Assembly: GCF_002854065.1 (NCBI RefSeq)
Contig: NZ_CP024147.1
From: Escherichia coli
Lineage (GTDB): Bacteria; Pseudomonadota; Gammaproteobacteria; Enterobacterales; Enterobacteriaceae
Direction: 5' to 3' (one strand)
Length of the DNA: 64,000 nt
Shown here: piece after piece, positions 2,206 through 9,836 of the stretch
How the letters are laid out: every line of letters starts with the position of its first letter
Position numbering within the stretch: position 1 is the first letter of the stretch
Notes under the pieces: generated by a model
The model's input: only the letters and a program-made list of their open reading frames with translations
Databases searched by the model: none
Told to the model about the DNA's origin: nothing
Translations under genes and position numbers: made by a program

Positions 2206-3363
2206 TTAATTATTCTCCATTTGTTTTGCAACATCCATAATGTGGTAAAGCGGTACTCTGTTCTTAGCTAACTCCACCATGGCGTTCATATAAGGTACCA
2301 TGGTTGAAAAAAGGATTTTATAACCTTCGCAAAAATAAGAAACAGTCTCATTGTTTACTTTAGTAATACGATGCTTAGGACAACCGCCATTGCAGATAGG
2401 TTTATATACACATTTCAGACATTTCGCTGAAATCCGTTTTTTTTGCGCTGTCAGTTGTACACTGTTCGTCGTTTTGAGTTCAGATTTATTAATGTTTCCA
2501 ATTTTGTACTGTGGATAGACAAAATGGTCGCATTCGTAAATGTCTCCATTACTTTCAACAACCAGATTATCCTTGCAGGACTCCTGGAAAATACAACTGG
2601 TATGCCCATTCCCCAAAAAACGGCTGACAAAGCTTTCAAACTGACGGATGAAAATTTCACCCACATCGTTTTTAACCCATTGCATAAAAATGGTTGACAT
2701 AAACTTGCCATAAGCCGTGGGAGGCACAGAAAAATCAATGATGCGGAATGTGTTCTCACTATGACCACTGAAATCAATATTCGGCGTCCCGGTTTCGAGC
2801 AATTCGATAAATTGCATATGTTTACTGCCGATAGATTTTAAAAAATGATAAACCTCAAGAGGGTAATGGACATTAACGTTATTAATGACGGTTAACGTAT
2901 TAAACTCTACTTGATATGATTTCAGACGCTCGATGGCTGCTATCACTTTTGCAAAAGTACCGTTACCTGAATTACTGCGTCTGTAACGGTCATGTAGCTC
3001 CTGGGGTCCATCGATCGAGATACCAACCAGAAACTCATGTTCTTTGAGAAAGGCACACCATTCATTATTCAATAAAATGCCATTCGTTTGTAATGCATTA
3101 AAAATACGTTTTTGGCCTGCATAGCGTTGTTGATAGTGAATAACTTTACGGAAAAAATCCAGGCCAGCCAGAGTGGGTTCACCGCCTTGCCAGGTAAAAT
3201 AGACCTGATTGCCAGACGCTGCGATATATTGTTTGATGAACTCTTTCAGAGTGCTGTCATCCATCCATTTTTCATGAGTAAACTGCGACTCTTTTTCAAG
3301 GTAAAAACAGTAATCACATTTGAGATTACATTGAAAACTGTAGGGCTTGGCTGTAACGTGCAT
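2206..3363 (-). CDS. ydeM: radical-SAM anaerobic sulfatase-maturating enzyme homologue
   Basis: ORF 2206..3378; CxxxCxxC radical-SAM motif CNLKCDYC near N-terminus and C-terminal Cys clusters; start placed at second Met to give the recalled 385 aa (alternative start 3378). Confidence 0.8.
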
Positions 3364-3414
3364 CGCTATCTCGCTCAATAAGGCGGCGGAAAAATCCGCC
3401 GCATGAAGGTTTAG

Positions 3415-5097
3415 TTATTTCGCTTCGCTTAGTGCTTTCTTGATATTGTTAAACTTCTCCTGATTTACCTCGCTAAGCGGTGGCTGGCTGCTGTCGATAA
3501 ACTCTCTTACCACGCCTTGCATCTCTTTAACGACCTGCGGATTGGCGGCGGCAAGGTTATCTTTTTGCTGTAGATCCGTCAGTTTGTAGAGACCTAACTG
3601 ATTGTTTTCTACTGTATAGACAAGCGAATAATCGTTATTTCTCACCGTATAAGAGAATTGGCTTAAGTCCTCAGTGTTGGGGTTATGCGGGTAATCGTCT
3701 GACTGATGACGGACAAATTTGTGGTAATTATCCCAGAATGGAATATTTTCCTCATCAAACCAGTGAGAATAAGAGGTTATCCAGGTCAGATTTTTATGTG
3801 GCTCGCCTTGTTTCTTATCTTGCAACCAGGGCAGCAAGGAAACGCCATCCAGCTTAAGGTCTTTTGGAATGCTGATATCGGCTGCATCAAGAGCTGTCGG
3901 GTAGAAATCCATTGCGGAAATCAGCTTGTCATAATTACCGGGTTGAAGTTTTCCTTTCCACCACATAAACATTGGGGTGTGAGTACCGCCAGGATAGGTC
4001 TGACTCTTATAGCCTTTTTGCGCCCCGTTCAGCGGCAGAGGGCCATCGATAACCGCACCATTATCGGAGGTAAAGAGAATAATTGTATTGTCATACTGTC
4101 CGTTTTTCTTCAGTTGTTCGAGAATGCGTTTTACACCCTGATCAACAGAATAAACGGAAGCGTAGTAGTTATCTGCTGTTTGACTACCGGTATTAAATTG
4201 CTTCTGATATTGCTCCGGTGCAGGATTATCATTTGGCAGGTGCGGAGCATTATAAGCCAGGTAAAGCATAAAAGGCTGGTCAAGTGTTTTGGCACGATCA
4301 ACAACGCCAATTGCCTCATCGGTTAACTGATCGCTGATATAACCTTTTGCGGGGACACGTTCACGATTTTTGAACAGTGAAGGGGAGTTGTAATATGCCG
4401 TTCCTGCAGCGTGGAATCCCATAAAGTAATCAAAGCCACGGTTTTGCGGTTGCCATTCTTCCGCAGAAAATGTGGTGAAGTTGTCATGATAGTCACGTGT
4501 TTGTTTATCTTCCGGTACCGGCACATTACTGATTTTTGACAAGTGCCATTTACCTACTGCTGCAGTGTAATAACCATGATTCTGGAATAATTCAGGCAAG
4601 AAAGTTTCTGTGAGCGGAATACCATCCTGAGCATCGGTATTGGAATAGACACCAAAGCGGGCGGGAGCTCGACCGGTCATTATTGCGGCGCGGGAGGGGC
4701 CGGAAACACCGTGTGCCACATAGCCGTTAGTAAAACGTACGCCTTCATCCATTAATGAAAGGAGCGTCGGCGTTGATTTTTGTGCAGCTTCAATGGCTTT
4801 ATCTATCCCTATTTTGTAGGTATCGACAACTTCACGATTTTCCATTGTTTTTGGGTCAAAAGATCCCTTATCAAAAGGAAGTTGTCCATAACCAAGATCA
4901 TCCATGGTCAGTACGATAATATTTGGCTTTCCTTTGGTACTGTATTCAGTCGGCGTAAAGTCTGAGAAAGCAACGTTTGTTTTGGTTGCTTTCAGCTTTA
5001 CATCATCTGCCGCATGAGCAGCAAATGCAGCCATACCAGATGCCAGTATCAAAGATATCGAGGTACTTACGACACTTTTCTTTAATGCAGACTTCAT
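3415..5097 (-). CDS. ydeN: Ser-type sulfatase (secreted)
   Basis: ORF 3415..5130; signal peptide after MKSALKK; sulfatase active-site motif SGPSR (S-x-P-x-R); start chosen at Met giving 560 aa. Confidence 0.85.
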   Translation of the reverse strand: MKSALKKSVVSTSISLILASGMAAFAAHAADDVKLKATKTNVAFSDFTPTEYSTKGKPNIIVLTMDDLGYGQLPFDKGSFDPKTMENREVVDTYKIGIDKAIEAAQKSTPTLLSLMDEGVRFTNGYVAHGVSGPSRAAIMTGRAPARFGVYSNTDAQDGIPLTETFLPELFQNHGYYTAAVGKWHLSKISNVPVPEDKQTRDYHDNFTTFSAEEWQPQNRGFDYFMGFHAAGTAYYNSPSLFKNRERVPAKGYISDQLTDEAIGVVDRAKTLDQPFMLYLAYNAPHLPNDNPAPEQYQKQFNTGSQTADNYYASVYSVDQGVKRILEQLKKNGQYDNTIILFTSDNGAVIDGPLPLNGAQKGYKSQTYPGGTHTPMFMWWKGKLQPGNYDKLISAMDFYPTALDAADISIPKDLKLDGVSLLPWLQDKKQGEPHKNLTWITSYSHWFDEENIPFWDNYHKFVRHQSDDYPHNPNTEDLSQFSYTVRNNDYSLVYTVENNQLGLYKLTDLQQKDNLAAANPQVVKEMQGVVREFIDSSQPPLSEVNQEKFNNIKKALSEAK

Positions 5098-5417
5098 AAA
5101 TGTTCCTCTTCTTATTGTACTTAATTCCAAAGTAATTTTACGAAGAGAAATAAGTGGATGTAAGTGAAGTTAGTCACATAAAGAGATAGCAGATTTAGCT
5201 AAAAAAAGGGAAATAACAGTCCATAAAGCGTTGACATTACTTTCTGTTCTACTAAGTAATTTCTCGCCGATAAACAACTAATCTATTGATATTTAATAAA
5301 TTATTGTATTTTACTGACAAAATGCCGAATTGAGATCATAAATAATCATGCAATAGGTTATGCAAATGCATAAATATGTGATGAATGTCACTTATTTATT
5401 TCAATAAATATATCGCC

Positions 5418-5450
5418 TAAAAACAACGCGGGGCAAGGAATGGCTGCCCC
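5418..5450 (-). terminator. rho-independent terminator-like hairpin (GGGGCAGCCATTCCTTGCCCC then T-run on minus strand), probably the original ydeO terminator now separated from ydeO by IS1
   Basis: GC stem 5430..5450 followed on the minus strand by a T-rich tract; lies just downstream of where ydeO would have ended before IS1 insertion. Confidence 0.4.
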
Positions 5451-5520
5451 ATTTAATTCTTACGTAGCGTGTGTGGTTGACTACCCGTTAGCAAATAATC
5501 AAATAGCTAAAGCACTCATC

Positions 5521-5529
5521 GTGTTGTCC
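5521..5529. repeat. 9-bp target-site duplication GTGTTGTCC (left copy) of IS1 copy 1
   Basis: identical 9-mer at 5521..5529 and 6298..6306 immediately flanking the IS1 ends. Confidence 0.9.
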
Positions 5530-5544
5530 GGTAATGACTCCAAC

Positions 5545-6048
5545 TTATTGATAGTGTTTTATGTTCAGATAATGCCCGATGACTTTGTCATGCAGCTCCA
5601 CCGATTTTGAGAACGACAGCGACTTCCGTCCCAGCCGTGCCAGGTGCTGCCTCAGATTCAGGTTATGCCGCTCAATTCGCTGCGTATATCGCTTGCTGAT
5701 TACGTGCAGCTTTCCCTTCAGGCGGGATTCATACAGCGGCCAGCCATCCGTCATCCATATCACCACGTCAAAGGGTGACAGCAGGCTCATAAGACGCCCC
5801 AGCGTCGCCATAGTGCGTTCACCGAATACGTGCGCAACAACCGTCTTCCGGAGCCTGTCATACGCGTAAAACAGCCAGCGCTGGCGCGATTTAGCCCCGA
5901 CGTATCCCCACTGTTCGTCCATTTCCGCGCAGACGATGACGTCACTGCCCGGCTGTATGCGCGAGGTTACCGACTGCGGCCTGAGTTTTTTAAATGGCGG
6001 AAAATCGTGTTGAGGCCAACGCCCATAATGCGGGCGGTTGCCCGGCAT
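5545..6048 (-). CDS. insB: IS1 InsB frame (transposase made as InsAB' by -1 frameshift)
   Basis: 167-aa [19 protein letters not shown]... identical in both IS1 copies; overlaps insA in the -1 frame. Confidence 0.9.
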
Positions 6049-6242
6049 CCAACGCCATTCATGGCCATATCAATGATTTTCTGGTGCGTACCGGGTTGAG
6101 AAGCGGTGTAAGTGAACTGCAGTTGCCATGTTTTACGGCAGTGAGAGCAGAGATAGCGCTGATGTCCGGCAGTGCTTTTGCCGTTACGCACCACCCCGTC
6201 AGTAGCTGAACAGGAGGGACAGCTGATAGAAACAGAAGCCAC
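5967..6242 (-). CDS. insA: IS1 InsA (zinc-finger transposition inhibitor)
   Basis: 91-aa [42 protein letters not shown] with CxxC...CxxC. Confidence 0.9.
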
Positions 6243-6275
6243 TGGAGCACCTCAAAAACACCATCATACACTAAA

Positions 6276-7037
6276 TCAGTAAGTTGGCAGCATCACCGTG
6301 TTGTCCGTGTTCATACCGGTGTGCCTTTGACAACGGTACTCCTTAGAAACTCTCTTCGGACTGTTGCCGAAATGTTTGCGGAACGCATAAATAAAATAAG
6401 ATGTACTGGCATAACCACATTGTTCGGCAATTTTATTGACTGAACCTTCTACGCGTATCAAATTTTTTGCGTGCTGCATTCTGGCATCTAAAAGAATCTG
6501 TGAGAATGTCGTTTGCTCTTGCTTAAGTTTTTTCTTCAACAGGCTTTCACTGATGTACAGGCAGTCACAAATATCTTTCAGCTTCCATGGGTGCGCCAGC
6601 TTCATGTTGACAATATTTCTCACTTTCCCGGAAACGGATAGCACACCGTTAGTTAATAGTGTAATGAAACCTTTGCATGCGGCAAAAATAGACAGGCAAG
6701 AAAAAAGCAAAAGTTCTGAAAAATTATGATGATTGCGTTCTTCCGAGTTGAGATAAGCAATCATTTCATTAAGCAATCCAGTCGGTACATTAGAAGCACG
6801 TAAAAACTTCGCAGGAACAGGCACCGTCACTGTCTGGATGTTAGTGCATTGTAGATATTTTTTAATGGTATTTTCATTAAATCCGATTTCTTTAAAATGC
6901 CGCTCATAAGGTTCAAAATGCGTACGAACAGCGTTATCTACCATCAGGATCTCGCCGTCAGAGAAGGCGTAATCTTTATCTAAAATGTTAGCGTTGAAGG
7001 CATGATGAATAAATATAACAGAACAAACGAGCGACAT
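6276..7037 (-). CDS. ydeO: AraC-family acid-resistance regulator; last 6 codons and stop supplied by the IS1 terminus
   Basis: 253-aa ORF with C-terminal AraC HTH region; reading frame crosses the IS1 junction at 6297/6298 and ends ...NTVMLPTY inside the IS1 end. Confidence 0.85.
   Translation of the reverse strand: MSLVCSVIFIHHAFNANILDKDYAFSDGEILMVDNAVRTHFEPYERHFKEIGFNENTIKKYLQCTNIQTVTVPVPAKFLRASNVPTGLLNEMIAYLNSEERNHHNFSELLLFSCLSIFAACKGFITLLTNGVLSVSGKVRNIVNMKLAHPWKLKDICDCLYISESLLKKKLKQEQTTFSQILLDARMQHAKNLIRVEGSVNKIAEQCGYASTSYFIYAFRKHFGNSPKRVSKEYRCQRHTGMNTDNTVMLPTY
6298..6306. repeat. 9-bp target-site duplication GTGTTGTCC (right copy) of IS1 copy 1, inside ydeO coding sequence
   Basis: identical to 5521..5529. 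Confidence 0.9.
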
Positions 7038-7111
7038 TTTATCTCCTTAAAACAATAAAGTTTTTATCGATACTTTTTTAACATTTCATATTTATAATTT
7101 GCTGTTTATTT

Positions 7112-7309
7112 TCAGTCTTGCAAACTATTGATAATGAAATGTGTAAGATCTCTTGCAATGCGACCCATTTCTGAAATGCCCAGCTGATCAATTGCCGAAA
7201 AAATGGCTATCAACGTAAGGGTCAGTAATAAGACAACCACAATTACAAACATGATTTCTTTATAGTTGTCTCTTTGCGTGATTTTGTTTTTCACTGTGGT
7301 CGAATGCAT
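7112..7309 (-). CDS. safA: small membrane protein connecting EvgS/EvgA to PhoQ/PhoP
   Basis: 65-aa ORF with one hydrophobic helix FVIVVVLLLTLTLIAIFSAI; immediately upstream of ydeO as in the safA-ydeO operon. Confidence 0.8.
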   Translation of the reverse strand: MHSTTVKNKITQRDNYKEIMFVIVVVLLLTLTLIAIFSAIDQLGISEMGRIARDLTHFIINSLQD

Positions 7310-7420
7310 TTCAAATATGTTTATTTAGCGGATAACGTTAAAAATCGTTAATCAGTATGCTTAATATAACAGGCTGGAGAAAAGAGGAAATAGGACTGGT
7401 GCTTCAGTACTGAGCGGAGT

Positions 7421-7438
7421 TTCTTACAGCTGTAGGCA
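7421..7438. promoter_or_regulatory. EvgA-box-like 18-bp motif TTCTTACAGCTGTAGGCA upstream of safA
   Basis: near-dyad motif, nearly identical to the one at 10080..10097 upstream of ydeP; resembles recalled EvgA box TTCPyTACA...TGTAPuGAA. Confidence 0.5.
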
Positions 7439-7556
7439 GAAGTTTATATCTTATAGTATGTAGTTTAATTTAATCCATGTGAGCAAATTGCGCGATAATA
7501 GTCAATGAGGAATTCTTCTGCTGTGCGGATGACAGCAGAAGAAATGAGAAGAGGCA

Positions 7557-9836
7557 TTAATTTGATGGTTCTAATTCAACCGGAATACTTTTATAGCCAG
7601 GAATGCCACTTAATGGATCGTGGTTATCAAGTGTTAGCATGTGATTCGATTCTGGAAAATAGGTCACCAGTGAGCGGTCAGCCATAGGGTAAATGACCAC
7701 TTTTAATCTATCCATGCGGCGTGAGCTGCGCTTACCGTCTGGCGTAAGCGCAATAAGATTAACTCTTTCGCCGTTTTTTACACGGCAAATTTTAGCTTGT
7801 TTAGCACTCATAAAGACCACATCTCGTTGACCGAATACCCCTCGATAACGATCATCCATACCATAAATCGTCGTGTTGTACTGATCGTGACTGCGTACTG
7901 TCGCCATGACCAGCTTACTGTTAAACGCTGAAGAGGGATCTTCTAACAGCCCTTTGCTGGTAATGAAATTAGCCTTACCTGACGGCGTCATCCAGCGCCT
8001 TTCAGCAGCTGCATTTATCAGGTGAAAACCTCCAGGATGTCGGATGCGCTGGTTATAATCGGCGAACTCTGGCAGCACAGCTTCAATGTCATTGCGAATG
8101 CGATCATAATCTTCCACCAGATACTCCCAGGCTACCACGCTCTGGGGTAGTGCTGCCTGCGCGATTCCCGCGACCACTGCACACTCTGATTTCAGCATTA
8201 CATCGGCGGGTTTTAACACGCCACGCGAGGCATGAATCATCGACATTGAATCCTCAACGGTTACCGCCTGCGCACCGCTTTTTTGCATGTCAATCTCGCT
8301 ACGTCCCAGAACCGGCAGAATATAGCTATGCCGTGCGGTCAGCAGATGAGAGCGGTTAAGCTTAGTGGCTACGTGTACCGCCAGATCTAATTGCGTTAAC
8401 GGTACAGCGCTCGCTTCCCGATCTGGCATTGCCAGTGCAAAGTTGCCCCCCATGCAGATCAATGCTCGAGCCTGCCCTGAACATATTGCTTGCATGCTGG
8501 CAATTGCAGCATGTCCAGGTGCTTGAGGTGGTGTGAAGCCATAGCGCTCACCCAGGCGAGCCAGAAACTCTGCAGACGGTTTCTCGGTGATACCGACGGT
8601 TCGGTCGCCCTGTACATTAGAGTGGCCACGTAGTGGGCAGATACCCGCACCAGGCTTGCCAATGTTACCTTTCATCAACAGCAGATTGACCAGTTGCTGT
8701 ACATTCTGGGTACCATGTTCGTGCTGAGTGATCCCCATTCCGTAACAGATAATGGTGCGTTCGGCAGCGGCATATGCATCAGCCAGTTCGGCGATTTGTG
8801 TCTGACTTAGTCCAGAAATACGTTCGATATCTTTCCACTCGGAATTGAGAACGTCACGGCGTAGCTCGTCAAAGCCGACGGTATGCGTTTGAATAAATTC
8901 GTCATCCAGCAATGAGGGCCGACCTGCGGCACTTGCAGCATCATCGCGCTCAATTAACAGGCGCATCATCCCCTTGAGCAACGCCATATCGCCACCAATG
9001 CGCACGTTGTAGTAGGCACTGGCCAACTGAGTCTCAGAGTTCGTCAGCATTTCAAACGGGTTTTGCGGTGCGGTAAATCGCTCCAGGCCACGTTCCTGTA
9101 GAGGATTGATGGCGATCATTTTCGCTCCCCGTTTCACTAAAGCGCGCAACGAAGTCAGCATGCGAGGGTGGTTTGTACCAGGGTTATGCCCAATGCAAAT
9201 GACTAAATCGCACTTCTCAAAGTCTTCCAGCAACACGGTCCCTTTACCTACACCGATACTCGCTGCCAAACCCACGCTTGTCGGTTCATGGCACATGTTG
9301 GAGCAGTCGGGAAAGTTATTGCTCCCGTATTCACGGGCAAAAAGCTGATAAAGAAAGGCAGCTTCATTGGAAGTGCGGCCCGAAGTATAGAATTCAACCT
9401 GATTGGGATCACTATAGCTTTGAAGGCGTGCGCCAATTTCATTGAAAGCTTGTTGCCAGCTTAATGGCTTGTAACAGTCGCTGACGGCATCATATTTCAA
9501 AGGCTGAGTGAGTCGCCCCGCAGCCTCAAGCTCGTGGTCTCCCCAGGTAAGTAATGATTGAACCGTATTCTCAGCAAAGAAAGAGGCGTTTACCTGCTTA
9601 TCCGTGACTTCCCAGGCGATTGCTTTTGCGCCGTTTTCACAAATGTCGAATGACGCACTGTGCTTAGGATCTGGCCATGCACAACCCGGACAGTCAAAGC
9701 CCTCTGGCTTATTCATGTCAAACATGGCAATAACATCCTGGCGTATATCCATCTGCTTACGTACTGCATTCGCTACGGATTTAACAGCACCCCAACCACC
9801 GGCAGCACCCTGGTAGGATTCAATTTTTTTCTTCAT
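7557..9836 (-). CDS. ydeP: molybdopterin-oxidoreductase-like acid-resistance protein
   Basis: 759-aa ORF; N-terminal Cys cluster CPGCAWPDP and formate-dehydrogenase-like composition. Confidence 0.85.

Follow-up and report, generated by a model that had tools for sequence, protein, structure and literature searches.

In the window (the whole stretch of 64,000 nucleotides of Escherichia coli DNA that was analyzed here) an IS1 element lies within the last six codons of ydeO, the gene of a regulator of acid resistance, oriented as the gene itself, and stands between ydeO and a hairpin with a T-run that is the predicted intrinsic terminator of the safA-ydeO operon. The best explanation overall, to which we give a probability of about 0.7, is that a conserved safA-ydeO terminator has been displaced by the insertion and now ends a host-IS1 hybrid transcript.

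The genes ydeM, ydeN, ydeO, safA and ydeP form a run in the window, all of them on the minus strand. From the open reading frame and the RefSeq annotation of orthologous loci, safA (7112..7309, minus strand) is the first gene of the safA-ydeO operon, which EvgA activates when the pH falls (PMC5619816). It is preceded by ydeP (7557-9836, minus strand, from the annotation of matching RefSeq loci). The next gene downstream of ydeO is the sulfatase-like ydeN (3415..5097, minus strand, from the open reading frame and the annotation of orthologous loci), and the intergenic region between ydeN and ydeO comprises 400 nt and is A+T-rich (27-34% G+C).

The IS1 element was delimited by its inverted repeats, open reading frames and direct repeat to 5530..6297 on the minus strand. 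Its length of 768 bp and its imperfect terminal inverted repeats of about 23 bp, IRR (GGTAATGACTCCAACTTATTGAT, 5530-5552) and IRL (GGTGATGCTGCCAACTTACTGAT, 6275-6297), are those of IS1, and matching elements are annotated in RefSeq as transposases of the IS1A/IS1B family. On the minus strand it harbors insA (5967-6242, an open reading frame of 91 amino acids), the insB' frame (5545-6048, 167 amino acids) and, at IS1 position 307, the A6C motif AAAAAAC for −1 frameshifting (5985-5991), an arrangement that matches the anatomy of IS1 given in PMC12903888. The element is flanked by a 9-bp target-site duplication, GTGTTGTCC, of which the copy on the IRR side is found at 5521..5529 and the copy on the IRL side, still within the reading frame of ydeO, at 6298..6306.

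A second IS1 (20454-21221), 100% identical to the copy in ydeO, in the same orientation and with an intact 9-bp duplication (AACCGTCCC), splits the gene of a type V autotransporter into an N-terminal piece with the ESPR signal peptide (21195-21746) and a C-terminal piece with the PATR, pertactin, autochaperone and beta-barrel domains (15549-20420). The identity of the two copies fits recent activity of the element but proves nothing. Being direct repeats 15 kb apart that bracket ydeO-safA-ydeP and neighboring genes, they could allow deletion of this segment. A promoter scan found CTGCCA-16-TATGAT on the minus strand within the IRL of both copies (6263-6290 and 21187-21214). This promoter-like site fits the weak, InsA-repressed promoter of IS1 itself, which partly overlaps IRL (PMC12903888), and incoming ydeO transcription would cross it. 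A hybrid outward promoter at the IRR junction was also considered and was rejected, inspection by eye having revealed no convincing −10 hexamer at the right spacing; a transcript from any promoter at this junction would reach the hairpin within about 80 nt.

The insertion has made ydeO (6276..7037, minus strand, from the open reading frame and the reconstruction) a chimeric gene. Its residues 248-253, VMLPTY, and its stop codon TGA (6276-6278) are encoded by IRL, so that the present stop codon is situated 20 nt within IS1. The tail of the protein has changed from ...NTDNTMSALAI to ...NTDNTVMLPTY and its length has remained at 253 amino acids. The AraC-type helix-turn-helix domain of YdeO ends near residue 231; judged from the sequence, the DNA-binding part is untouched. 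The original 3' end of the gene is still present on the other side of the element, where the stretch 5499..5529 (minus strand) comprises the second copy of the duplication, the last six original codons (MSALAI) and their stop codon TGA (5499-5501). Deletion in silico of IS1 and of one copy of the repeat restores a YdeO of 253 amino acids, the exact sequence of which is found on at least 1000 public contigs, and in the genomes with an empty site the annotated end of ydeO coincides exactly with the reconstructed stop. The hairpin starts 47 nt past this ancestral stop and is displaced from ydeO by 777 bp, the sum of the 768 bp of IS1 and the 9-bp duplication, in good agreement with the distance of about 0.8 kb given in the preliminary description. 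In that description IS1 was placed between ydeO and the hairpin and beyond the end of the gene. The separation holds; the location has to be corrected, the element having entered the last six codons.

The hairpin and T-run had been described at 5418-5450 of the minus strand, and both were found there, the coordinates agreeing within one base. From the terminator scan and from folding the G+C-rich stem-loop extends from 5451 to 5429 (5429..5451, minus strand) and has the sequence TGGGGCAG-CCATTCC-TTGCCCCG, which forms 8 pairs (5 G-C and 2 G.U) around a loop of 7 nt. Directly 3' of it follows the T-run CGTTGTTTTT (5419..5428, minus strand). In the RNA the U-tract, UUGUUUUU, has 7 U per 8 nt, begins 2 nt past the stem and is interrupted by one G; it satisfies the scan rule for an intrinsic terminator and is not ideal (CG-UUGUUUUU). 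The core hairpin alone has a moderate stability of −11.7 kcal/mol in the form present in the window, as compared to −13.7 kcal/mol in the common E. coli form. In its context of 71 nt it folds with −19.7 kcal/mol (z = −2.2 vs. shuffled sequences), and in this fold an A-rich run upstream of the hairpin pairs with the U-tract. An open reading frame of 56 amino acids on the plus strand (5440-5610), which runs across the hairpin and the end of IS1, was treated as spurious.

A loosely defined terminator motif is not rare, 63 matches per 60 kb being found vs. about 66 in shuffled sequences. Since the loose rule does not discriminate, a stricter class, to which the hairpin belongs, was scanned; it is defined by at least 7 pairs, at least 5 of them G-C, a loop of 3-8 nt and, no more than 2 nt from the stem, a stretch of 8 nt with 5 T or more. 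Of this class the 64-kb window contains 10 sites, compared with 3.25 ± 1.7 in dinucleotide shuffles, which is an enrichment of about threefold. At the shuffle rate the chance that such a site starts on the right strand no more than 100 nt past a given stop codon is about 0.003. When both strands from 3000 to 9000 were scanned, the hairpin at 5451-5429 was the sole terminator-like match.

The 46-nt core of hairpin and T-run is found in 5346 of 5426 complete E. coli genomes. Exact copies of its K-12 form occur in 1918 records, and three or more mismatches in only 17 records. The hairpin has the same position relative to the ydeO stop in genomes with an empty site, and the 200-nt segment of hairpin and ydeO 3' end is disrupted in about 30 of 5381 genomes. 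At stem position 5437 the window has T where most E. coli have C. Pairing is kept by this change, a G.U replacing the G-C, and the stem becomes 2 kcal/mol weaker than the common E. coli form. The exact 46-nt form of the window is present in 23 of the 5426 complete genomes, none of which has IS1 at this site. A change of G to A in one contig opens the top pair of the stem.

In a scan with the back-translated YdeO peptide of one genome per species only three loci were found, one of them in the E. coli representative, in which the hairpin region was not located by the pattern used, and two with E. coli-type sequence. ydeO thus seems to be confined to E. coli. The latter two, USHE01000194.1 ('uncultured bacterium UMGS1713') and JARKOR010000108.1 (a metagenome-assembled genome of 'Candidatus Nanosynbacter'), both carry an E. 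coli-type ydeO 3' end together with the hairpin, and probably are contaminations with E. coli or misbinned contigs in metagenome-assembled genomes.

It had been claimed that transcripts of safA-ydeO must read into IS1, and the position of the stop codon bears this out. Because the stop is located 20 nt inside the element, no complete ydeO mRNA can avoid entering IS1; an mRNA that fell short of the junction would lack a stop codon. Because IS1 is oriented as ydeO, read-through transcripts are in the sense direction with respect to insA and insB'; the start codon of insA follows the ydeO stop at a distance of 33 nt. A terminator between ydeO and the old hairpin was not found by the scan. When the scan was relaxed within IS1, one weak candidate was obtained (5911-5874, minus strand), a hairpin of −10.2 kcal/mol followed by TGTTTTAC. 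It lies in insB', and no other site within the element is a candidate at which read-through transcripts might pause or end in a factor-independent manner.

We propose the following sequence of events. In the ancestor a conserved Rho-independent terminator would have ended the safA-ydeO transcript 47 nt past the ydeO stop and upstream of the ydeN promoter region. IS1 then inserted near the end of ydeO, within its last six codons and oriented like the gene, duplicating 9 bp of target; YdeO has kept its length and its DNA-binding domain and has gained a six-residue tail and a stop codon from IRL. The transcript induced by acid via EvgA now necessarily enters IS1, its long 3' extension leading through IRL, insA and insB', and polymerases that have crossed IS1 would reach the old terminator with a delay of 777 bp and end the safA-ydeO'-insA-insB' transcript there. 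The old terminator may still insulate ydeN. Most likely, part of the safA-ydeO'-insA-insB' transcript reaches the old hairpin and ends there, which would lengthen ydeO mRNA by about 860 nt at its 3' end. The anatomy of the locus, the insertion, the ancestral state and the conservation of the hairpin are established by the sequences, whereas termination at the hairpin, the share of transcripts that cross IS1 and any effect on the stability of ydeO mRNA or on the transposition of IS1 are inferred.

Among the other explanations, the one that survives best accepts the hairpin as a genuine terminator and considers it orphaned, most safA-ydeO transcripts ending within IS1 through the action of Rho or through a roadblock formed by InsA at IRL. 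Such transcripts would lack the protection of a 3' hairpin, and the stability of ydeO mRNA would be lowered. IS1 insertions are known from classical genetics to be strongly polar in a Rho-dependent manner, which is in favor of this explanation; a literature search on Rho-dependent polarity of IS1 yielded nothing usable. Beyond the end of insA (5967), translation of about 420 nt of insB' depends on a frameshift that is rare on IS1 (less than 2% of the mRNAs, PMC12903888), so that this part would be exposed to Rho as naked RNA; the weak hairpin with TGTTTTAC at 5911-5874 also points in this direction. However, the untranslated insB' RNA is G-rich and C-poor (C/G 0.62-0.83), which is unfavorable for Rho loading, and the only stretch with more C than G falls into the translated insA. 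Furthermore, lacZ placed after insAB' reports transcription from upstream genes (PMC12428005), which indicates that at least some polymerases traverse IS1. We consider termination of most transcripts within IS1 to be possible, though clearly less probable than that the displaced hairpin ends the hybrid transcript.

The second explanation denies the hairpin an effective role in termination. It would be a conserved but neutral palindrome or only a stem-loop stabilizing 3' ends, and safA-ydeO would end otherwise, for example via Rho. The 2-nt spacer, the G within the U-tract and the moderate stability of the hairpin are consistent with this, and the offset and interrupted U-tract together with the stability may mean that the efficiency of termination is modest even if the hairpin does function. 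Compensatory double changes in the stem are absent from the variation within E. coli, so that the structure is not proven by covariation, and the 200-nt region is 94-100% identical within the species, the conservation of the hairpin not exceeding this ordinary identity. The loose motif is, as already mentioned, equally common in shuffled sequence. A search for an experimentally mapped 3' end of ydeO found none, neither Adams 2021 nor TERMITe 2025 listing ydeO or safA in its supplements; under the standard conditions of Term-seq experiments the safA-ydeO operon is silent. Against an ineffective hairpin stand the threefold excess of strict-class motifs over shuffles and the finding that this one is located 47 nt past the reconstructed stop, at the end of the operon and on the transcribed strand. 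It is also the only such site in 6 kb, has the G+C-rich stem and short loop of an intrinsic terminator and, like many natural terminators, is preceded by an A-rich run that pairs with the U-tract. On balance an ineffective hairpin is unlikely, and the hairpin probably works as the predicted terminator of safA-ydeO, a function which we regard as a well-founded prediction.

That the hairpin serves the regulation of ydeN instead, as a leader attenuator or a protein-binding palindrome, is very improbable, for although it lies within the A+T-rich ydeN-ydeO intergenic region, 322-354 nt upstream of the ydeN start, the minus-strand promoter-like sites in this spacer (5436-5407, 5328-5300 and 5164-5135) are all located at or downstream of the hairpin, the 47 nt from the ydeO stop to the hairpin leave little space for an upstream ydeN promoter, and no relevant family was matched at the hairpin when 4900-7600 was scanned against Rfam 15 at a permissive E-value. 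The single match in that scan was to a plastid model (5305-5399, E = 0.67), far under the gathering score and at chance level.

Among the 5426 complete RefSeq E. coli genomes none has the ydeO-IS1 junction of the window. Entries for the chimeric protein are AUJ96036.1 and WP_101969398.1, on record for two contigs; one of the two belongs to a separate draft assembly and ends just past ydeO, where IS1 would start. No paper on IS1 at ydeO was found in a literature search. WP_101969398.1 is listed as an ordinary YdeO, annotation at the protein level hiding the last six residues and the stop derived from IS1.

Independent insertions of IS1 at other sites of the locus are found in four strains at no more than about 300 bp from the hairpin, and in a fifth strain inside ydeO. 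In window-equivalent positions, IS1 follows 5230 in strain AR_0086 and 5235 in strain 6EVA, both in the ydeN promoter region beyond the hairpin; it follows 5481 in S1-INA-02-B and 5487 in PI24, both between the ydeO stop and the hairpin; and it follows 6389 in LR-33, inside ydeO, which in this strain is annotated as a pseudogene. The IS1 insertions in complete E. coli genomes thus cluster in the A+T-rich ydeN-ydeO spacer and in the 3' part of ydeO, and separation of ydeO from the hairpin by IS1 has arisen at least 4 times (window, S1-INA-02-B, PI24 and LR-33). An apparent orientation bias, six of the six mapped copies being oriented alike, was rejected as an artefact, because BLAST joins only pieces on the same strand and oppositely oriented copies would go unlisted.

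Transcription entering IS1 from outside has been studied in other contexts. For IS1 copies in K-12, read-through from upstream genes raises the transcription of insAB' and transposition, and an upstream rrnB terminator lowers both (PMC12428005). By analogy with this precedent, effects of read-through on mRNA stability and transposase expression are plausible in the window. The title of Machida et al. 1983 (Cell 34:135), which is listed in PMC12428005, states that read-through from flanking DNA represses cointegration by IS1, and whether transposition is raised or lowered may therefore depend on the assay. Because the terminator no longer stands between the safA-ydeO promoter and IS1, mild acid stress might switch up the transcription of insA and insAB' and hence the transposition of IS1 in this lineage, which we consider doubtful. 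If true, stress-coupled expression of a transposase would here have arisen naturally, through displacement of a terminator, and if acid-induced read-through did raise transposition, the allele would offer a natural test case for the effects of genomic context on IS1 that were measured in K-12.

The insertion in ydeO is an ordinary allele next to a probable intrinsic terminator and matters little outside this strain. It illustrates cleanly how the 3' end of an operon for a stress regulator can be rewired by an insertion sequence while the gene survives: ydeO mRNA would gain a long 3' extension carrying transposase genes, and the old terminator would become that of a host-IS hybrid transcript. 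Both an intrinsic terminator and an IS1 with a 9-bp duplication are textbook items, which makes the locus a new instance and not a new kind.

Compared with the Rho-independent terminators of E. coli, the hairpin is alike in its G+C-rich stem (7 Watson-Crick or wobble pairs plus a closing U.G), its loop of 7 nt, its U-rich tail, the A-rich run upstream and its original position shortly past the last stop codon of an operon. It differs in that the U-tract is offset by 2 nt and contains a G, in that the stem of this strain is weakened by the G.U pair and in that it is now separated by 857 nt (6276 to 5419) from the stop of the gene that it served. The element shares with IS1 (IS1A-type) of enterobacteria its size, inverted repeats, reading frames, A6C motif, 9-bp duplication and A+T-rich surroundings and is in itself ordinary, whereas the site, in frame within the last six codons of ydeO, is particular. 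Among specific precedents IS1E in yrhA of K-12 (PMC12428005) comes closest; there IS1 is likewise arranged in tandem to host promoters with no terminator in between; in the window, by contrast, the upstream promoter is the EvgA- and acid-inducible promoter of safA-ydeO, so that any effect on IS1 would be conditional.
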